Positions 6,778 through 26,400 of a stretch of 64,000 nucleotides of DNA are shown here, one piece after another. Within the stretch, counting starts at the first letter, position 1, and each line of letters starts with the position of its first letter. Source of the DNA: Patellaria atrata CBS 101060. Lineage: Eukaryota. The notes below the pieces were generated by a model that was not told the origin of the DNA, did no database searches, and worked only from the letters and a program-made list of their open reading frames with translations. Location of the stretch: assembly GCA_010093705.1 (NCBI GenBank), contig MU006098.1, positions 882,666 to 946,665 of the forward strand. The letters run 5' to 3'. A program made the position numbers and the translations under genes.

Positions 6778-8609
6778 CGAACCGTAATGATTAGTGTAGG
6801 AGCTAAAGGTGGGTTCTCACTTGGATACTTGCTGTTTATTTTCTATTTTTATCATGGCATGTGACATATCTTTTGGCGTTGTTGAAGTTAGCGCTTCGAT
6901 TGGATGTCAAAGTTTGGCTTGTTATATACTCATCCATCCCATGAAAGGTTCTGCATAATCAATTATACAAATTCTTTCTCGAACCTCGAAATGTCTTATT
7001 ATTACATGCGCCACGAGTACTCTAATACCCGATTCGCAGAGGTTGTTGAAGTTTTACCCTGATCAAATCCAATTACGAAATATTTATAGTGGGAAGACTT
7101 ATACAAAGCGAGGCGAGAACTCATGATCAGAGAAGAGCATTGAACTACAAAGCTAATGTACCATACATACCAGGAGATATATACCGACTCAAAGCTCCCC
7201 GATTTCTTCGAGCGACCTGAATGACAGGATCTAAGTGCTACCGTACTTTCAGAGAGCAATGCGTAGGCAGAAGTGGTAGGTTAGCCGTTGATTCATTGGT
7301 CAACTTAGTAACATTTCTTTTGAGGCGGAAAGTTAGCTAAGACTAGTATCGAGTCTGATTAGAGTATCAGGTAAAGAGATTTGAAAGAAAGCTGATTAAG
7401 ACTAAGGACTGAAGATGGGAAGTTGGAATATAGCCTCTGTTATGTACAATCAGTCACAGCACGTACAGTGACACAAGAATGCTTGTGCTTCAACACACCC
7501 GTAGATTCCATATTCCTACTAAGGGCTTGTTGCCCTGGTCACATACTTTCTATGTTGGTCATTATCTGGATGGTACCAGCAACCATGATCTCCACTTGAG
7601 AATTTTTGACCTCCGCCGCACACGGAGCAGGGCGTTCTGTTTGACTTTGTATTTGAAGTCCTAGTTTTGTTTTTGAGCCCCAGTGCTTGAGCTTGAGCTT
7701 TTACAAACTGGTCTATGAAGGTAATCTCTTTCGTAAGCACCGTAAAGGGCTTGGGGTCAGTCGATGAGTAGGTATCCAAAATCAGGATATTTGTTGCTGG
7801 TGTGGCTTTTGCAGGACCGGACACAGGCGTCGCACGTAAATACCATTCAGAACCCAATTGGGTAAAGCATAGCCAGGGTCGACTACGCAGAGCTCTTCCC
7901 GAAGACTGGACAGTACCTTTCCAAAATTATCTGCACTGCCGTAGACTTATTGATTCAAGCCTTGTAGCTTTAAAATGATGCTGAAGATGACCCAGCATCA
8001 ATTTGTAGAGGGTCTACTGTCAATTTTGCTGGCCTCCATGGCCTCCAATAGACTTAGATCAGTGATCTAAAGCAGAAACTGTAATGGTTGTGGGAAGATA
8101 CGGTAGGTCAGAAAAAAGACTTTACGCGGGACGTCCACCAGGTAGAGCAAGGGCTCCTTAGGTCGGTATTATGTTCCTAGCTCTTTCTTCTAGACTTATA
8201 TTCAATCGAGTTCTTATAGGTAACGAGAAGGTTGAGGTATTGAATATGCTTTCGAAAGGAAATAGAAAATACAATAGGACAGGAACAACCCCCTGAAACT
8301 ACGTTTGCATAGTTTGTTACCATTTAGAACTAAGGAGTGACTGACGCACGTGGCTGGTGCGTTCCAGCATGTCCAGTTAGGTTCCAGCTCCCTAGTCACT
8401 TCGGTCGACCTCATCACCAAACAAAACATACGTACAGTATATACAGGCAGCATCTGCCACAGCACGCACCGCTACTTCGAGACCTCGAGATTACCGCACA
8501 TCCTAATTCAATATATAATATCGAGCAGAGAGCACTTGGTTAGAACGTAGGTCAACGAGGGCTTCCGTTCCCAACCTACTACATACGAACGATCATAAGA
8601 CTGTCAATC

Positions 8610-9762
8610 ATGTCGCCTAACCTTAGTATATCTATTCCCACAACAACTACCAAGGCTCCCGCGGGATCCAAAGCGTATACTGCATATACAGTTCAACTCG
8701 TTACTCCTCTTCGCACGACTACACTACAGAAGCGGTACTCCGACTTTGTGAACCTAAACTCCGCTCTAGCATCAGAAACTGGGTCCTCACCGCCAACACA
8801 GTTACCGTCCAAAACATGGTCAATATTACCCTTCGCCAGTGGAGGTACAGTAGGCAACCCAGAGAAGGTTGAAGAGCGGAGAGAAGGACTAGAGAAGTAT
8901 CTTAGGGGCATCCTCACAGCTGGTGATAAAAAGTGGAGGAACTCTCTGGCATGGCGCCAGTTTCTCGGTGTAGATGATCCCTTATCTAGCGCAGCCGCAG
9001 GAGCAGCACGCGGTGCTTCTAAGGATATCTCGAGAGAATTGGATCCATCGAGTTGGCTCGATGCACATAGAGAGGTGAAAGCGGAACTACATACGGCGCG
9101 GCAGTTCTTGAACAAGCGTGAGCAGGCGACAAACCCGTCGGCTCAGCACGAAGCTAGCGCGGGGGCCAAAAAGTGTCTTGTGAAGTCTGCAACAATAATC
9201 CAAGGGATGGAACAGGCATTAAGGAAGTTTGAAAGTAAGGACTATTCTGGGGAGAAGCTTGGTGAAAGGGAAATCCGACGTCGGAAGGATTTAGTTGGCG
9301 CAGTACGGAAGGAGAGAGAAGGTCTGGATGGAATCCTTAATGCTATCGCCGTCAAGAGTGCGGTTGCTGCAGCAACGCAGCAGGTTCAAGAAAGGGAATC
9401 TGACAACACTGGCTTTTATGGAAATAGTTCGAAACGTGTGTTAGGTGGCCCTTCAGTTCCAGAAACGGAGCAGACAAGAGAACTGGACAATCAAGGTCTA
9501 TTGATGTTACAGAAAGATATCATGCAGGCACAAGATATGGATGTGGAACTATTGGGTAAGACGGTGCGAAGAATGAAGGAGTTAGGAATAGCGATCAATG
9601 AAGAATTAGCAATGCAGGCAGAGATGTTGGATCTCTTAGACGAGGATGTTGATAGGCAAGTTATTCTACTGCCTCACAATCCGATTCACATGCTAACTCG
9701 GATTTTATAGGGTTGCAACGAAGGTTGATATTGCTAAGAAGAGAATTGGAAAGATTAGATGA
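8610..9762 (+). CDS. VAM7: Vacuolar Qc-SNARE with PX domain (Vam7); exons 8610-9655, 9711-9762
   Basis: N-terminal PX motif (YTAYTV...KRYSDFVNL...LPSK...ERREGLEKYL). C-terminal SNARE motif (QDMDVELLGKTV...INEELAMQAEMLDLLDEDVDR|VATKVDIAKKRIGKIR*) with no TM anchor. The SNARE helix is completed only through a GC-AG intron at 9656-9710. Confidence 0.9.
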
Positions 9763-10578
9763 TTTCTAACGACTAGCATCCCCATGATTTGGTTATTCTG
9801 AAGCGTCTTAAGCGATTATACCTAAATATACTGATATTTCTTTCCCTGCGACGAATTTACTCCGGTACTTTACGCTTACTATACTCTTTTCCGTGGAGAC
9901 TTGAACCTAGACCTCGATAGATATTCTGAAGCATTTATTGTGAAGGCAATATACAAGCCTTTCGTCCGTTGTACAGCTATAGAGTCTAGTCCAGTACGTA
10001 CAGCACAGTCGAAGACCATTTAGAAACAAACCGACGGTAACCCTACTAGTGTGACGGCATGGGAAGGGATGGAGATGATGCACAGTAGGGTCTATTCTTT
10101 CTCTTGACATAATATCTTCATTTATTTACAAACGGCGTGATAGAAGCGTGAATGCCAAGCTAAAATGAATGAAGTCTGTATGAGAAGCACTCAAATTTCC
10201 TGCTACAGTATCCAACAGCAGTACACCCTAGGTCCTATTTTGTATTTTTGCTTCATCCCAATTACATTCACCTAGTCTAGCTACAGAACGTGGGCCGTTG
10301 TACGCCTGATGCAAAATTCACCAGTGGCTGTTCAGAAATTAGTGCACGCGTCACATTTTACAATGTCAATTTTCTTGTATTCACTCAAAGTCACCAATTC
10401 CGCCATGTGCTTTGACACTGCGTGATTCCTCAACCTAAGACCTAACTCAATCTCAATCCACGTAGAGAACACGCTCCAACAACGTCGCCTCCGCATCACA
10501 ATCCAAAATTTCTTTGTACATCCTCCGTACCATTATCACGACATTGGTATTGCGTGACGCCATAATATCAGGTCCGCA

Positions 10579-11364
10579 ATGTATCTGACCCGCAACGAAT
10601 TCATTGCTCGTAACCTCGATCACGCAAGGAAAGCCGCCAAGGAGAGAGGCGTGTTGGAGCCCTACCGCTTGATCTTTCTCAAAGGAAACATCAATGATCT
10701 CGTAAAGCTAGAGGAATTGTTGGTATGTCCAGTGTCGCGATAACCAGCATCATCATTGTAACGATCAATGACTAATGAGAAAAATAGGAGCAAGGTCGGG
10801 AATGGCTCATTGCCCAAAGTTTTAGGGATACCCTCGATGATGCAGTCCCAGATTGGTTCTGGTGCGAAAAGGACAAGGTCTGGCTGCTGATCTGGAGGTT
10901 TCCGTATGCGAGTGTAGTTGTCGATATCGATGACAAGGGTAATATCACGGATGAGTGTACAAGTAAGATACCGAACCTCCTCTCATACCATCCTCCTCAC
11001 TCGAGCTTTCACTTCATTTCAGTTATTAATCATCATTGTTCTCACAGGTATCTTCTTCCCAGAGCCCAGGCTCATCTGGGACCCAAAATTCCAAAAGCCT
11101 ATTGACCGCCAAAAGTTCCGCTCAGAGATCCTCTTGCAGAGGAAGAAGATTGAACAGGAGAACGAGACACTCAAGAATTCTTACCTTGTCGCGCGTAATG
11201 GCAAGATCTATATACGCAGGCCACGAATGGCGCCAGAGAATCAAGCTGAGTCTCCAAAACTGGGCTCCAAGGCTTGTTCATGTGGCACTGAGGTTGACAA
11301 AGACTGGGTGATGCCCAATATGCTGGAAGAAGGATGGGAGAAGGAGTGGGATATGGTGGATTAA
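10579..11364 (+). CDS. Hypothetical protein, 3 exons
   Basis: ATG at 10579 (MYLTRNEFIARNLDH...). Two canonical introns (GTATGT..ACTAAT..TAG; GTAAGA..CAG) join in frame to the 10918-11364 ORF tail. No family recognised. Confidence 0.6.
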
Positions 11365-13329
11365 AAGAGGGCATTTCCGAGTTACTTTCACTGCAATGGC
11401 CTAACCATTGTTGGACAAACCGTGGAAATTGTGGGCATTCTCCAGGATACCCGTAAGTAACGTCTGAACTCTTGGGTGGTGTTGCTGTGCACTTCCACGC
11501 AACCTTTAGGCCGCTTCCAGTAAAACGGACCTTCCCTTAGATAGAAAAAATTGCGGGGTGCTACATATGCTTGCTGCTCCATTCCATATAATTGATAACT
11601 ATTGGAAAGTATATGTGTGTGAAGTGAAGTGTAGAGTTGATGGCACCTCTCTAGGAGAAACTGGAGGAGGACAAGTATATATACCCGACTAAGTGTTTAG
11701 TCAGGTCTGATAATAACTATTCAGAATAATTGTGGCTGTTGTCCGCTCCTTTGACCCCGTTATTCCCAAGATTTCCTAGAACAGTCCTAGCTAAGCTAAA
11801 GCGATTAGTAAGCCCTGCCTTTATTTCCACTCCCCCCCTTGCGCCTTTCATTTCTCCATCTTCTCTAATCTCCTATTGCGCACGAACTCTTCGTAAGAGA
11901 TTCTTGATTTTCTAATGATGTATTTCGTGCATTCAAGGAGCAAGTGGAAGGCTCGAATTTCTTGTATCGGTTTTGGGTTCTACTTTAAATGGTTGACGGT
12001 TACGGAGTTCAAGATTTGAACGAAAAGCAAAGTTTGTAAGATGGTAAAGTATTTCTTCAACCGTTGCGGTCGATATACTTGGGCGCTATATGCTTGCTGA
12101 ACATCCACTGGCGGTCGGTTGCTGAGTATATATCTTCTCCTCTGTACGAGTAAGCTGCTCGTACAATTACTAGTTATTCATACGATTCCTCTCCCTAGTA
12201 TGTTCTGTGACTCGTTTTAGACGCGATGTACGGTAATTCGGGATGCGACGATTGGTGAACATCCATTCTATCGCTATCCTTGGGCTGACGTTGTAATTCA
12301 TCTCATTTCAGATGGGTACCCAATTCCTCAACGGAAGTTATTTGCAATACGGGCCGATGTAGTTCGCTTTCCCTTTTACGTCCGTTTCTTAGTTTAGTCT
12401 ATATCAATGAAGAAAGAGGTATTGAACTTATCACACGTCTCTATTCAGCAATTCTCTCACACTTATGTTCCTTAGATGTGGTGAACTGGTTGCGTATTCG
12501 CGCAAGAAACACGACGGATTCATTCTTGTGCATAAAACAGTTTACATGGAGGATGGAACCGCGCTCCTAGCATTTTAAACAAGGTTGTTCATATATTTTT
12601 CGGTGACGATGATGCCAGTCCCACTGGCTGTCTCTAGAACAGGACTGACTGGAAATTTACTTCCTTAAATGGGACCGGGACATTTTTGAAGGCGCAGTGT
12701 TTGCTCGTAAGACAGCTGATGCGGAAAGTCCAGACCGTAGCGCATGAGCTAGTTAAGTAGTTTCAAATACAATTACTAGATAGGGTGATAATGTGTCGAT
12801 TATCAAAGGCCAAAAATTTAGTCTCTACCACGAATACCAACGGGGTGACGCCGCCAACCGCATCCGTGTCCACTACAACCGGTTCCCCGATCACCTCGAC
12901 TTAAAGGCTGAGTCGAATAAGACGGCTTCCAAATCATGAACGACGTATGCAGAACCAAGCGTCTTAGTGATCTCTATGGTCTCTCCACGTTGTAATTTTT
13001 ACCCTGTGCTCCAGGCTATGCGGATCAATCGCTGAGGATTGCTTTGCCAGTATCCTCATGTAGAACTCTGACGCTAGTTGTACGGAGAGGGGTGGATCGC
13101 TATCTTTACGGACGCATTAGGGATTGGGAGTAGTTCTTATATACAAACTTCCAGCCTTCTCAAGGGGATGTAGAGAGAGATAGAAGCTTTTATCCTCCTG
13201 AGAAATCGATCTTCAAACTCATAATTCCAGAGCTCTTGGTTGGAAGCCGTATAGGTATCATCCCGCACCCACGTGTCTGCCGCACGTTTGCACCTTATAA
13301 GCATCACTTGCTTGAACATTCATCACCTC

Positions 13330-13459
13330 GGGGCCATAACCGAGTAGTAACGTACTTATGTCCCATCCTTTAAATGTATAACCCCGAGGCCCCGGGTTTG
13401 AGCCTCCCCAACGGGGTAAGGGCAGATGTGCTTCCGCTTCGGCGCGGGGGAACTGTTTT
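13330..13459 (+). ncRNA. Putative Pol III transcript: tRNA-derived head plus structured GC-rich 3' part (novel ncRNA, SINE or tRNA pseudogene)
   Basis: GGGGCCA-TA-ACCGAGTAG has tRNA-like T8/A9/A14/G15 spacing (A box). GGTTTGAGCC at 13395-13404 is B-box-like, a cUUCGg hairpin sits at 13435-13444, and several T-tracts follow from 13456. Confidence 0.45.
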
Positions 13460-15623
13460 CAATTTTTAAGTTTTTTTTTCATTATTGTACTTTACCTTTT
13501 TTTTTTTTTTTTGGCACTGCATTTTGACTCCTTGGGTGGTTGTGGTTTACATTCAAGAAGACGGTGAGCCGACGCAGGAACAAATCCGTAATCTTTGCAG
13601 ATATGCATCATCAACCCATCGTCCCCAACAAACACGCCCGTTGGTTTTTGCCCGCTCTTGTTTGCCTTCCAAGTCTCAGGTGCGGGGCAGTCAAAATATG
13701 ACGAAAGCAGAGCTTTTTACAAAGATAGGAACTGTATTTGAATCTGATCTGATAGAGCAAATAGAGTACATAGAGCACCATCTATTCTAGTATGTATTGA
13801 TGCACGCAATGGGCGAACATGAGGATGATGCGACCTGCGCCTACTCGTAGAAGAGGCAAGATTAGAGACAAGATATTGAAGCAGGTCCAGAAACACCAAT
13901 GTGCGTTCGCAAACCACCTTCGGCTCAAGACTTACAGACTCACAGTACGGTTGACTTGAGAGAGTTTTAAGGATTGAGCCGTTTACTTCAGACTCTCCCA
14001 GACCATCCTTGTCTTTGTAAGATGACATTATACTGTGGCTGATGGCATGATACTTGTCTCGCGTCACTTTTGAAGACGGTCATTAGTGTGGAATAACTAG
14101 AAAAACGTCAGCAACGGCCTACCGTTAAAGCGAAGACATTTTCCTTGGAGATTTAACAGCATCCTCTGTACCAACAATGTACCAAGGATATTCGTTTGAG
14201 AAGCGGACGTCAGGGCATTATTAAGGTAGACAACTGGGATAGCTTCTTATAACGTTTGTCGATGGTTAGACGGAACGACTGACCTAAAGATACTACTCAC
14301 ATTCAACGGAAGAAATTGTCTGCTTTATCCACCAAGCGTTGATCTAGGACAGTTCGAAGACGGATCCTTAGTTGGTAGAAGGAAGAAAACGCTCTTTTCA
14401 CACGAAGTCTTGAATCAGACTAGCATGTAAAATTCATTGTTCTTAAAGAGAGGAGAGTAAAGATTCGTGCGTATGGGTTCCTCCCCCTATTGCGTAAACA
14501 AATCCACCACGTAAATATATTTCTTTTACCATTCGTCCGGCCATCACTGATCAAAACTGAGATTAAAGCGATTTCTTCTGCGAGAAGTTCGTCTAATGAC
14601 CAAGATTAGGTAGGTGGTACTTCAAACATTGAAAATGGCGAAAATATTGTCCTTGGTTTGATAACGCCCCATTCTTCACCCCTGAGACTGAGATATCCTC
14701 CCGCTTGTCCGACACCAAAGTATTCTTAACATCCATCTCATAGCACAACATTGCCGCAGATCCGTCCTAAATAGATCATTGAGAAGTGTAAACTCTTATC
14801 AAACGCTGTCTATTACTCCCATATAATCCCAGCTTGGAACTGTCGATACAAGCAATAACATAAATGCTTTGCCGAGTTATCGAAAGCGGTAGTCAATCTA
14901 TAAAAGTAATTCATCAGATCATGTGTGAGCTTATGCTATCTTTCGGACATTAGGGTAAGTCTTGGCCTTTCGAGAAACAAAGCGCATAGGGCTCTTTCAT
15001 ACGCGCTTCCAGTGTAGTAAGCTCTCTCTGTTGACTTGTGAACTCACAGTAACTGGATAGATCATGAGTACTGCAAAGAGATCAATGCGCCCTGAGAGCA
15101 AAGGTTCACCACTCCTGAGGCGCCTTGGTAGCAACAAGTACAATACGCTATTACTCATAGCTTGTTACTTCCTTGTTGTAGAATAAAGAATCAATAACAT
15201 AAGTGGATGAGGACTGTTAAGAGTAGGGAGACTATATTATCAGAAAAAGCACAATGATACCATTAGAATAGCATCGATGCCATCATTGCCGTATACCGAG
15301 CAAGTACCGGCAATTCATACGACGTTAGCAAAAGGTTAGCACAAGCTTCTATTAATCAAAGAATGCGTTGCCAAGCCATCGTCAAAGTTGCAGAGTGGCG
15401 TCTGTTTCCCAAAAACAGAACGATGAATCCCTCCACGTATTTCAAGGCCCGTTTCATAAACAATCAGCCAAGAATTCAGAATTTGAAAATGCATACTAAG
15501 AGGTGGAATTCCCACCAATAGTAACTATAACCGTAACGGTTTCTAGTGTCAAAAGTGCTTTGAATGGTTGGGAGCCTTGTTTTCTGAGAGATTCTGGAGT
15601 TCACATATATAACGGTTAAATTA

Positions 15624-15693
15624 ACCCCAGATCTTGGCAAACTATAGGAGGAGGAACATCCTTGAGGAATTCAATGCACCCCAGATCTTGGCA
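15624..15693. promoter_or_regulatory. Duplicated 16-bp element ACCCCAGATCTTGGCA upstream of the LPMO (CreA-like plus PacC-like sites)
   Basis: Exact copies at 15624-15639 and 15678-15693. The reverse strand of each contains CTGGGG (fits SYGGRG) and GCCAAG (fits GCCARG). TATAAATA lies near 15875. Confidence 0.5.
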
Positions 15694-15983
15694 GTAGAAG
15701 AGATAATGCAAATTCGAAGAGCAGTGAGCAACTGGACACGCTTCTATATGAGTTTTGAGAGACCTGGATGTGATATTAAGAATATATGAAAGCGGAGACA
15801 CTAGGATAACTCAATTTGGACACAACGGACACACGGCTGACAAAAGTAGCAGGTAGAATTGACTAAAAGAGATGTATAAATACTAAAGACGTCTCTAGCT
15901 GTTTGTTGGCTTTTAACCTTCATCCGCGGGTCATTCATTCTTTAGTGTCTTTCTCTAGCTAGTCTCCGTTGACTTTCGACAGA

Positions 15984-16694
15984 ATGAAGTTCTCTTCTTC
16001 TCTTCTCGCCCTATTGGCTGCATCGCTCGCAGAGGGCCACTACATCTTCTCTCATCTGATCGTTAATGGCAAGGCAGTAGGTGGCGAGTATACTTACATT
16101 CGAAAGAACAGCAACACCTACATGCCATCCTTTACCGATGAGATAGTCAACTCTCCAGACCTTCGATGCAACAAAGGCGCCAGACCAGGAGGCTCTACCC
16201 AGACGTATAGCGTGAATGCTGGGGATAAAATCGGATTCAAGCTCGACTATAACGAATTCATCGAGCACCCAGGCCCAGGGTTTGTTTACATGTCGAAGGC
16301 GCCAGGTGCTGTCAGCACCTACGATGGTTCTGGCGACTGGTTCAAGGTGTATGAGACTGGTCTTTGCAACGCCAACTCTCCCGGTCAAGATGGAAGCTGG
16401 TGCTCGTGGCAGAAGGATCGCCTAGAATTCACAATCCCCAAAACGGTCCCACCAGGGGAATATCTCGTCCGCGTAGAACACATTGGTCTACACGAAGCCT
16501 TCAAGGGCAGAGCTCAGTTTTACATGGAGTGTGCACAACTGAAGATCTCGGGCAGCGGTGGGGGGAACCCAAGTCCGCTCGTAAAGATTCCTGGCATCTA
16601 CTCCGCTAATGACCCCGGAATCAAGTTTGATAAGTGGAATAACCCTAAGCCCAACTCTTACGTCATGCCGGGACCCAAGGTCTGGTCCGGTTAG
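15984..16694 (+). CDS. AA9 lytic polysaccharide monooxygenase (GH61), secreted, no CBM1
   Basis: Signal peptide MKFSSSLLALLAASLAEG followed by mature His1 (HYIF). Second His in HPGP; GDWFKV, PGEYLVRVEHIGLH, AQFYMECAQL and PGP..W motifs. The true start is the ATG at 15984. Confidence 0.97.
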   Translation: MKFSSSLLALLAASLAEGHYIFSHLIVNGKAVGGEYTYIRKNSNTYMPSFTDEIVNSPDLRCNKGARPGGSTQTYSVNAGDKIGFKLDYNEFIEHPGPGFVYMSKAPGAVSTYDGSGDWFKVYETGLCNANSPGQDGSWCSWQKDRLEFTIPKTVPPGEYLVRVEHIGLHEAFKGRAQFYMECAQLKISGSGGGNPSPLVKIPGIYSANDPGIKFDKWNNPKPNSYVMPGPKVWSG

Positions 16695-17533
16695 GGGATG
16701 TTCGATTACCGCTTTTCTCATCAATCCTGATCCTTTGGGAATATTGCGACCAGCATAGTGGAAGGACGGAGGGTTCTATCATGAATGATATGTTGAATTA
16801 CACCATAAGATAAAGAATATAATGAGAAACGTGTGCGAAAATGATTGACACTATGTTCTTAAGATCGTTTGACTCGTGAAGTACTCTGAAGAGATGTCCC
16901 CATATGATTCCATAACCTGCCAAACGAAGTGCATTAGACTTATGGTTTGATACTAGACTCCTTGAGTGAATACAGTTCTTGAAAATACTAAACGCTGTAT
17001 CTGTAATCTCAAGCAGATGCAGAGCCTTACCATTTATCGCAGCTTTTACGCATAATAAGGGCCATGGACTAATACGGATGACATGGAAGGACGTCGTATT
17101 TATCCTATGATCGGTGTTCGGAACGTACCGAAGCTTCTATGGTTCTATCTATCGTAGATCGAAACTGTAAACCCGGCTGGATGGAGGTTCTAGAGACTTT
17201 CCTTCAGGGTTCGGCAATGGTTGTTTACGTGGTTAACGGCTCCGCTATTAGAGTATTTCGCACGTACTGTACTCGGCCTCACATCGAGGAGACGTAATCC
17301 TATCAATCTGTAGGCCATTCTCACCAGTAACGGTGATAGATGTTTTGAAAGAGGCAAATGGTGTGAAAGCAAGGAAAGATGAATCCCTTCGGGGTTGCGT
17401 TAATCATCCAATAAAAACATCCATTCCGTCACTAGCTCGAAAATTTTGCCTCCACCATCGGCCTCGGGAAAATACCCCATATGGTTTGTTAAATTCATAA
17501 ATATTTACTATATAAATAACCCTGACCATCATA

Positions 17534-17622
17534 GGTTGTGTGGTGTAGCGGTAGCACCCTGGATTCTGATGTTAAAAAGTCTGGATTTTCCAGTAACCTG
17601 AGTTCGATCCTCAGCACGACCT
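17534..17622 (+). tRNA. tRNA-Gln (anticodon CTG) with ~17-nt intron (17570-17586)
   Basis: Acceptor stem GGTTGTG/CACGACC, D arm GTG..CAC, anticodon stem CTGGA/TCCAG with CTG at 17566-17568, T arm CTGAG-TTCGATC-CTCAG, and a TTTTT terminator just downstream. Confidence 0.95.
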
Positions 17623-17955
17623 ATTTTTGCTGCCTCGACATCTCCCAGGCTCCTAATACAGCAACCCTTTCCTTACTTTTTGAATGAGTCAAAGTGGATG
17701 GGTGGTGCGGGGCTGTAATTTTCAATTTTTTTTTTAAAACCGAAACAGCTGTCGAGGACTCCTTGAACACTCGAGGAGGTAGCCATACGGAGTAGTGAAC
17801 TTGAAAATGTAGTATAGAGGGTTGAGTATAGTTTGATATTATTCCTTTAATGCTTTATTTCTTTAAATCATCTATTTACTATTAACTCCTTACCATGCTA
17901 AAGTGAAATGCGCTATACAGATACAAGACTAGAAAAACTGTTCAAAGCGTTCCAT

Positions 17956-23440: not shown

Positions 23441-26400
23441 ATGGCTTCCCTCGTATCTGCCAGTGATCTAGTTAAGGCCAGTAAAATAGCGTTTGACATA
23501 TATCAGATGGGATGGTCGAAAGAACTAAACGCAAGTGAGTGATCAGCCTTCTTTAACTTGACCCCTGAGCACAGATCAGAAAGCCTTGTCGAATATGCAA
23601 ATTATCTATGTATATATATCTCGATTGATGACCACTCTCGCGTACTTGGTTTAAATAGACACTTACAAGCAAATTGTAGCTGTCCAATTTAACGAATTCG
23701 GCGAGGACATTAGAGGACTCGGTCAGAACCTCAAGGATGTCGTTACAGTAGTAACCAATGCGACACAACAACAATCGGGTGGAAATAAGTTCTGGGACCT
23801 GTCCTCTCTCGAGGAGATTATCGGGGATTACAACAGAACTTTGGCCGACTGCAGGGCGCTGTTACAGGAGAACCATCAAGTCAGTCAAAGAACAAATCCA
23901 GTGTACAGTGTACAATGGAACGTTCTTGTTCAGCCTCGTATTACTCGATTGCAGACGCGGCTTCAATTCCACAATTCGAAGGTATTCTGTAACTGACCAT
24001 ATCTCTCATCACATAAGCTAACTGGACAGATTGCCATCCTACTCAAACCACTTGAGCTGTAGGTTGGAAGCCATTATGAAATGCGATCTATGATATCCTA
24101 ACAGACTTCAGAAAACTTCTCACCGAAGTACATGATGATCTAGCTTCAAGGATCAATGCTGTACACAGGGAAGTACTCAACCTTAAGTCGTTGATTGTCC
24201 CGAATATCAATGAAGCGATCAGGCAAAGAGGACAACAACAGACGTACAATTTAGATGTTCCATCGTCTATAAGTACGCAGTTTGTTGATGTAGCTGAGAA
24301 GGATTACCCGGACATAAGAGCATTGGGGAAGTTCCCTTTGAAGGCAGGGGCCGACGCTTTTGTGTTTCATTTTAACAAGGTAAGGTATATTTCAGCGGGA
24401 GAGTATACGGACATTTCAAAACGTACTTTTGGACCCGTGCTAACTGTAGAACTACTGTATGCCCCAGAGGAGCTATCTAGTAGGAATCCCCATACGGATA
24501 ATACATTATTCCATACTAGAATACTATATTTCTTTACTTAACGCGATATTAGATTTTGTTGTAGAACACGTAAGGTATTATCCGTATGGAGATTCTTGCC
24601 ATAGATAGCTCCTCTGGGGCATACAATAGTCCTACAGTTAGCTCGGGTCTAAAATTACGCTTTAAAGTGTCCGTATACTTTCCCTATATCATCTTTCCTA
24701 ACCCTAAAGAATCTCAGGACAATTCGAGCTAATTGATTTTCGATAGAGCACTAGGAATTTTACGCCAGGTCGTTTCGTCCAGCAGAGGACGCCGTGTGCG
24801 CTTCAATACTTGAGCTTACTAAAATGTATCTGGATAATGAGTTATCTGAAAACAAGCAATGAACTTGTGATTGCTGGGTCGGAGTCCCACTGGCCCGACT
24901 ATATCAAGCAACTAGAAGAAGTAAGCAACGTTGAAGCTCAGAAGCACACGTATAATTCATAACTCATTCGTACATTTAGAACTTAGCCCTAGAATGTCAA
25001 CGATTTGAACCAGGTCGATATGATCAATTGATGGCTCCCCCGCTGGATGAAGTTTCGTCCGAAGACTTCAGTATATGGTTAGCAGATGAGCTTCAAAGTC
25101 TCCTGTCGCCTTTCCAGGAGACGGAAATGAGGGAGCAAATACTTCGAGTGTAAGACACCCTGCATGGTTACTTGTCCTTTGAACTATTTTTCTGACATAT
25201 CTTTAGCCGTTTACCAAGCTCTTCATCCTCCGTAAAGCACGAGCTGTCTTTATTCAAGACAGGTCCTTACAAGATGACGGTAGCTGAAAAAGTAGTAGAC
25301 ACTTCTTCACAGACTTCGAGGTCCGCAGGTAAGGTTCCGCTTTGACTTTCAAAGAAAGTCTTGATTCTGATGTAACAATTATTATAGATAGAGAGCTCGA
25401 CTTCGATCTTAGGACTGTAAAGTTGATCCCCATGTATGCGATGCCGAGTTCTTTATCGTCACGAAATCTCATCATCATCGCTGAAAATAAAACGTCCACG
25501 TTTACATTCTCAGAGACGAGACACATATTAAAATTCCAGCATGCGATAACAGGTTATAAAGTATATGAGGGTTATGATCAGTACGTGAATTCAAGGCTTC
25601 GTCCTAGCTTAACTAACTCTAGCAAGATCAGAAGTACGTGCATCGTTCGTTCTCTCCGGTTCGCGAGAGATAAAGGCGGATGTTCGAATTCAACTCTGGT
25701 TGCCGAAATCAATGCATTCGAGTACAATGTCAGCAAACGAGTCCAATGCAAGTGTCCAGACTACTATTCCTATTCCTTTGAGTAGTCCCAACTTCGGGAG
25801 CTATACAAGTGTCAACGCGAGCAACAGAATGGCGAGTCCGACACCCTTAGGCAGCAGACGTTTGTTACCCTTGAATACCATCAACCAGCCTAACGGAAGT
25901 ACGTCAGGGTTTTTAGATATCCCAAGTCCGATAAGTCCAAGTCGACTGTCTAGAAGAACCTCAACCATCTATTCAGCTTCAAGCTCAATGTCAACAGGTT
26001 CAAGCAGTATCTCAGCTATAAGTACTGGTTCGGGAAAGGGGAGGTTACATACAAAACCTCCAAAACCGATGATGGTACTCTTCGTTAAGGAGAGAGAGCA
26101 AGGAAGTAAGCTGTCGTTGGTCACCATCGAAATCGATGACCAAAGCTATATCAACCGAGATAACTGCCGCTGCAATCGTGCAAAGAGTGATTGCCATTAC
26201 AGTGCAATCGAGAGAAAGGGGAACCTTATTGCTCACCGATATGTTGCCGATGACGGTCTCAATGGCTGGGATGCTGCGGTACTAGCGATTACTCGCCAAA
26301 GAGACTCTAGAACAGCATGGGAAGGCTTGAAACGTGTCAATCTAAAGTTCAAAGAACTCAAAGGTATACTTATTATTGGCGTTCGCTTGAGTTTGCACTC

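Follow-up and report, generated by a model that had tools for sequence, protein, structure and literature searches.

The element at positions 13326-13512 of a 64,000-nucleotide stretch of the Patellaria atrata CBS 101060 genome (assembly GCA_010093705.1, contig MU006098.1, positions 882,666 to 946,665 of the forward strand; this whole stretch is called the window and is numbered from its first letter) is most likely an interspersed repeat that resembles a short interspersed nuclear element (SINE), the class of which we leave undecided. Comparison with read contigs indicates that a unit of about 228 bp is dispersed over the genome in six copies or more, the element among them. The sequence-only reading of this stretch had proposed an undescribed structured RNA of about 130 nt, a transcript of RNA polymerase III (Pol III) possibly capable of alternative folds, or else a SINE derived from a transfer RNA (tRNA). 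The observation was accurate, and its significance was over-read. We consider it probable that the element is a copy of a dispersed repeat and not a unique gene for a structured non-coding RNA. On this view, 13326-13512 covers the core and the tail of a single copy (about 13253-13480) in a family of short interspersed repeats, whose members would be wearing away neutrally across the greater part of their sequence, through base substitutions and through internal losses of 14, 32, and 64 nt.

The copies were recognized in Logan contigs from two public runs of the same organism (X1 and X2), which contained 97-99% of the sampled words of 8500-17500 and were aligned to 12800-14000 at a likeness of at least 80%; copies diverged by more than 20% fall outside this comparison. 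The window's own contig showed 0 differences across the stretch. Five further contigs aligned within about 13260-13464 with approximately 88-90% identity, and the three listed in full had 20-21 differing letters over about 170-205 nt. The mean depth of these other contigs was 310-347 in X1 and 458-492 in X2, the corresponding values for the window contig being 323 and 479, and each of them had loose ends on both sides that were unlike the window. The count of at least six copies follows from these five contigs, because they have single-copy depth and flanks of their own. A hand check of the depth assigned to other sequences in every listed variant row showed that it splits uniquely into the five contigs, with the same result in X1 and X2. 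The sequence-only reading had set many copies in the genome, as for a SINE, against a single syntenic copy with covariation, as for a functional RNA; the comparison gave a set with five further members, and the occurrence of several dispersed copies in different flanks is a property expected of a SINE. Several points weigh against the reading as a decaying repeat. X1 and X2 represent one sample of one study, probably DNA and probably the source of the assembly itself; copies had to be counted as distinct contigs, since summed contig depth is no copy number; and variants were read among the rows listed, which leave out 20 pieces together with 8 rows of variants and 4 of indels. Furthermore, the whole unit folds slightly better than its shuffled counterparts (z-score -1.89, reached by 8 of 200 shuffles), and a block of 46 nt (13328-13373) is approximately 96.5% identical among the copies versus 87-90% around it, which could mean some constraint.

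Searches within the window returned no further copy: a 28-nt core with up to 3 mismatches matched only itself, and blastn (word size 7) and nhmmer gave the element plus chance matches of 11-19 nt. A 27-nt match of 74% at 17704-17730, downstream of a tRNA gene, rests on a low-complexity 12-mer and was dismissed as chance. When metagenome contigs were scanned for exact occurrences of a 24-nt pattern from the 46-nt block, 0 stretches were obtained. Eight metagenome loci from a degenerate scan, with a stop-free minus-strand reading of 66 amino acids, were also attributed to chance, their likeness being limited to the stretch of about 23 nt by which the pattern had selected them.

The repeat unit (13253-13480, + strand) was delimited from the alignments and the loose ends, and its ends are uncertain by several bases. 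Alignments of the other contigs start at 13260, 13282, or 13283 and stop at 13449 or 13464. Inspection by eye showed that three contigs have loose ends resembling the window as far upstream as about 13253 and diverging beyond it, where two of the flanks are A-rich, and that the loose end of one contig behind 13449 is T-rich and tracks the window through its run of nine T residues (13471-13479), after which it becomes unlike. The motif TTATAA (13295-13300, + strand), 30-35 nt 5' of G13330, is located inside the unit and outside the unique flank; it is kept in three of the four other copies covering this site, and one copy has A at 13295. Numbering from G13330, the proposed +1, puts T8, A9, A14, and G15 in the A-box-like motif TAACCGAGTAG (13337-13347, + strand), which matches 7 of the 9 specified consensus positions. 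The B-box-like motif GGTTTGAGCC (13395-13405, + strand), with T at 13399, also matches 7 of 9. The inverted repeat of 8 bp formed by CCTCGGGG (13326-13333) and CCCCGAGG (13382-13389), designated helix 1 below, was recovered by an inverted-repeat search, and the smaller helices previously pointed out are likewise found in the sequence. The T-rich tail (13456-13512, + strand; 12% G+C), composed of runs of 4, 5, 9, and 16 T residues, is shared with another copy at least to about 13480. A palindromic E-box-like CACGTG (13270-13275), itself part of an imperfect palindrome (13265-13280), occurs in the 5' part of the unit, and a similar ACGTG was seen by eye in the loose end of one other copy.

All letters described in the sequence-only reading are in place, and its GC-rich island is real. 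The segment 13380-13455 has a G+C content of 68.4%, a level that just 111 of 63,924 segments of 76 nt attain. The interval 9711-15962 (6.2 kb) lacks any stop-free frame longer than 148 amino acids, and none of the 29 open reading frames (ORFs) scanned reaches a Pfam cut-off. The "exact tRNA spacing" of the A box holds when counted from G13330, but not relative to the 5' end of the shared unit, which lies about 77 nt further upstream.

The differences among the copies bear directly on the helices for which a structured RNA had been proposed. The segment 13382-13445 (+ strand) holds the B-box-like motif and the CCCC/GGGG hairpin together with one arm each of helix 1 (3') and of the terminal stem (5'), and other copies can dispense with it: three of the five carry deletions, namely of 14 nt at 13386, of 32 nt (13414-13445), and of 64 nt (13382-13445). 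Helix 1 is lost in two of the five, one lacking the whole 3' arm and one combining 13383 C>A with the 14-nt deletion, and two further copies have one-sided changes (13327 C>T and 13382 C>T) that leave G-U pairs. In the CCCC/GGGG hairpin, 13416 G>A faces C in two copies and the 3' arm is missing in one. The terminal stem carries 13432 T>C or T>G in three copies and 13433 T>C in a further instance; each of these changes faces A. Its 5' arm is missing in two copies. Hand reading of the listed rows revealed 0 base pairs changed on both sides among the six copies. Since the copies decay by substitutions and deletions, the helices would belong to one copy and would not represent a selected RNA structure, and the pattern of variation is read here as neutral decay and not as selection for a fold. 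A long-range pairing between the 5' and 3' parts of the whole unit was also considered as a structure and rejected: the fold energy of the unit is marginal, an alignment of the two parts at the DNA level does not go beyond chance, and the pairing is interrupted in three copies, where 13417 T>G and 13430 G>A come to face A and C, and lacks its 3' arm in two.

The same comparison suggests that the window copy is a worn one. All other copies covering the respective site differ from the window at 13308, 13399, 13417, 13418, and 13430, which implies that the window copy carries derived changes of its own. The change 13399 T>C is found in each of the three other copies in which the B-box site survives, and their form, GGTTCGAGCC, matches 8 of the 9 specified positions; the GGTTTGAGCC of the window would thus be a decayed form of GGTTCGAGCC.

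The combination of motifs in the element is not beyond chance. With two mismatches allowed per box and a spacing of 30-75 nt, the window contains 23 pairs of A- and B-box-like motifs, a number which includes the true tRNA gene twice; the average over 30 first-order Markov simulations was 14.3 (range 9-21). Perfect 8-bp inverted repeats (at least 6 G/C, loop of 3-60 nt) were observed twice versus 3.8 expected. The fold z-scores of 13326-13460 relative to dinucleotide shuffles were +0.70 for the + strand and -0.38 for the - strand, and those of the parts were -1.62 for helix 1, -1.27 for the terminal stem, and -0.94 for the 46-nt block. The motif pairs, hairpins, and fold energies are accordingly all near chance level, and the terminal stem said to be capped by an extra-stable cUUCGg tetraloop does contain these letters but has a 6-nt loop in its minimum-energy fold. 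A unique, single-copy structured Pol III RNA of about 130 nt with alternative folds is therefore very unlikely: the motifs and helices exist as described, the GC island is unusual for the window, and no known family accounts for the element, but the element is multi-copy, its helices are not kept among the copies and are partly deleted in three of the five others, its fold energy is no better than that of shuffles, and its motifs combine at a near-chance frequency. The absence of any compensatory change among at least six copies argues in the same direction.

Known RNA families were searched with Rfam 15 (4227 models; gathering score of the tRNA model RF00005, 29 bits). At the gathering score, a tRNA at 17534-17622 was the only match in the window and none fell on the element. 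Over 12800-14000 with E-values up to 10, nothing relevant and no match to RF00005 was obtained, the sub-threshold matches being mir-4650, CrcZ, and FsrA with 14-16 bits versus gathering scores of 80-95. ARAGORN, applied to 13150-13600 with introns allowed, predicted no tRNA at the default or the 95% threshold, and candidates with "introns" of 86-114 nt appeared only at thresholds of 70-80%. The tRNA-Gln(CTG) at 17534-17622, used as a control, was recovered under every ARAGORN setting as well as by Rfam, and an alignment of the element to it revealed no similarity. The earlier statements that the element forms no cloverleaf and fits no known RNA consensus are in agreement with these results. 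There are resemblances to tRNA genes, including the one in the window: a TATA-like sequence about 30 nt upstream, A- and B-box-like motifs, and a T run downstream. Unlike tRNA genes, the element has neither a cloverleaf nor a covariance-model score, and its 8-bp and other helices are incompatible with a tRNA. A tRNA gene or plain tRNA pseudogene could explain the A-box-like motif at tRNA positions 8-18 from G13330 and the B-box-like motif about 58 nt downstream of it, and the region corresponding to the D arm is presumably loosely like that of a class II tRNA; yet there is no Rfam tRNA match up to an E-value of 10, the ARAGORN candidates depend on thresholds of 70-80%, and the true tRNA-Gln(CTG), which both tools find, does not align with the element, so that we give this explanation very little credence. 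The tRNA-Gln(CTG) gene itself (17534-17622, + strand; RF00005, 49.5 bits) contains an intron of 18 nt, is preceded by TATAAATA about 25 nt upstream, and is followed directly by a terminator of five T residues; ARAGORN without the intron option reports it as "tRNA-???" with a 4-base anticodon.

The most conserved part of the family is the 46-nt block (13328-13373, + strand), which contains the A-box-like motif. By hand count over the listed rows, 2 sites vary among these 46 nt and 22 among the 105 nt that flank them (Fisher p 0.008); in terms of cells, about 8 of 230 differ in the block, 28 of 214 on its downstream side, and 18 of 180 on its upstream side. The copies are related, so that the sites are not independent, and the count is confined to the listed rows; the constraint is a hint only. 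The six loci could accordingly be viewed as a small multigene family of functional Pol III RNAs or TFIIIC-bound sites with 13328-13373 as the core and a dispensable 3' part. Besides the low variability of the block, the upstream TTATAA kept in most copies, the good B box of three copies, and the oligo-T runs directly after the unit speak for such a family. These points are offset by the fold of the block, which is not beyond chance, by the relatedness of the copies and the restriction to listed rows that underlie the site counts, by the deletions downstream of the block in three of the five other copies, one of which lacks the B box, by the degraded B box of the window copy, and by the scans of metagenome contigs, in which no relative outside the source genome was found. 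We regard a functional family as improbable, and the reading as a decaying dispersed repeat is preferred.

With respect to the way in which this repeat was dispersed, we infer that Pol III transcription of a SINE-like element is the most likely route; the features in favor are an internal pair of A- and B-box-like motifs about 58 nt apart, a 3' part unrelated to tRNA, and an oligo-T terminator or tail forming part of the repeat. Given a dispersed repeat, such a mechanism is rated at somewhat less than an even chance, the remainder falling to another transposon class or a duplication at the DNA level. A number of observations count against it. No tRNA similarity of the unit was detected by Rfam, by ARAGORN, or in the alignment to tRNA-Gln(CTG); neither strand has an A-rich tail; no target-site duplication was noticed by eye around 13253 and 13480 in the window copy, with 30 letters of flank visible for the other copies and the ends of the unit uncertain by several bases; A/B-like pairs of such quality occur near chance frequency; and homology sets in about 77 nt before the proposed +1, with TTATAA included, which is unexpected for retroposed copies of a transcript starting at 13330. 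SINE2 elements have a tRNA-derived head at their 5' end, and the unit here starts about 77 nt before the proposed head. Neither the 77 nt of upstream sequence common to the copies nor the absence of any detectable parent tRNA agrees with a classical tRNA-derived SINE, and the class is therefore left undecided. Of the two possibilities originally named, the repeat is thus the one favored by the dispersed copies, which number at least six, whereas the more specific label of a tRNA-derived SINE is supported in part: tRNA similarity is not detectable, the unit does not start at the head, and no target-site duplication was noticed in the window copy.

The rival of the SINE-like mechanism, which does not compete with the repeat reading as such, is that the unit belongs to a different class of transposon, as a fragment or a non-autonomous derivative, for instance a miniature inverted-repeat transposable element (MITE), a solo long terminal repeat (LTR), the end of a Helitron, or the 3' end of a long interspersed nuclear element (LINE), or that it represents a dispersed duplication at the DNA level, the Pol III-like motifs being coincidental in either case. 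That the copies agree for about 77 nt ahead of the presumed Pol III start would fit a copying of the whole unit as DNA, the near-chance frequency of A/B-like pairs points the same way, and a second repeated patch about 250 nt away (about 13702-13906) suggests that the interval may be a patchwork of repeat relics. However, terminal inverted repeats as in a MITE were not found in 13200-13560 by a repeat search with a seed of 6, and the local alignment of the 5' part with the reverse-complemented 3' part had a score of 15, which was reached by 110 of 500 shuffles. Termini of LTRs (TG...CA) and Helitrons (TC...CTRR) were not seen by eye, no transposase or reverse transcriptase signal was present in the 29 flanking ORFs, and the A-rich tail expected of a LINE end is lacking on both strands. 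We consider this origin possible but rather unlikely, and the SINE-like repeat remains the preferred assignment.

The classical fungal SINEs include Foxy and EGH24, and A-rich or simple-repeat tails are characteristic of such elements. The repeat described here shares with the classical elements, for example MgSINE, that it is a short non-autonomous interspersed element with internal Pol III promoter motifs, and differs from them in that it ends in T runs and lacks their tRNA-like head. MgSINE of Magnaporthe can be folded into a cloverleaf, as stated in a report on SINEs of Aspergillus fumigatus (Kanhayuwa and Coutts 2016, PMC5063351). A closer counterpart, likened here by description and not by sequence, is provided by the AfuSINE2 families, low-copy, tRNA-related, SINE-like elements of Aspergillus fumigatus Af293. 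According to the same report, they are 140-493 bp long and have degenerate A and B boxes, a 5' part that does not fold into a cloverleaf, and a tRNA-unrelated 3' part before an oligo-T tract; a parent tRNA was assigned to them, and their target-site duplications are 4-14 bp long (Kanhayuwa and Coutts 2016, PMC5063351). The occurrence in a filamentous ascomycete, the low copy number, the degenerate boxes, the missing cloverleaf, the tRNA-unrelated 3' part, and the oligo-T are common to both, whereas the unit of P. atrata has no detectable parent tRNA, has no duplication that was seen, and starts about 77 nt upstream of its A-box-bearing head.

The surroundings of the element contain several other features. 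In the second repeated patch (about 13702-13906), located about 250 nt downstream, a contig of 136 nt with 13 differences and 7 gaps aligns to 13730-13862 beside the exact contig, the contigs at 13825-13865 sum to about four times single-copy depth, and 13903 is followed by a loose end. The gene-free interval 9711-15962 as a whole has ordinary indices of repeat-induced point mutation (TpA/ApT 0.87 and (CpA+TpG)/(ApC+GpT) 1.12 versus window medians of 0.835 and 1.115), and its interpretation as a transposon graveyard shaped by this process was rejected; a telomerase RNA was likewise dismissed, as no telomere-template 9-mer is present in 9711-15962. On one side, the interval is flanked by a stop-free frame of 388 amino acids (8544-9710, + strand), which we take to resemble a PX-domain SNARE and whose C-terminal end looks intron-interrupted, and on the other side by an intronless gene for an AA9 lytic polysaccharide monooxygenase (15984-16691, + strand; PF03443), the best non-self relatives of which are 80% identical and come from different ascomycete classes; this gene assigns the window to the Pezizomycotina. 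Further downstream, a nested inverted repeat has outer arms of 83 nt (24397-24479 and 24602-24684; 89% complementary) and an inner pair of 25 nt (24484-24508 and 24571-24595; 92%), and is directly followed by the telomere-repeat-like 11-mer CCTAACCCTAA (24697-24707); the entire structure (24397-24707) may be a foldback or MITE-like element.

Taken as it stands, the element matters little, since it looks like a worn copy and since short low-copy repeats with degenerate Pol III-like motifs are known from filamentous fungi. It illustrates that a repeat relic can yield, on inspection by eye, "Pol III hallmarks" and hairpins in a GC island, and that a check of the copy number settles such cases quickly. 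There is a slight chance that the six loci form a Pol III-type family in which the 46-nt block is selected as a short RNA or as a chromatin element bound by TFIIIC or Pol III and retained at several genomic sites of a sparsely sampled Pezizomycotina lineage, with the GC-rich 3' half free to decay. If the block were indeed bound or transcribed, the family would represent a compact case of a fungal SINE-like unit retained for a function.

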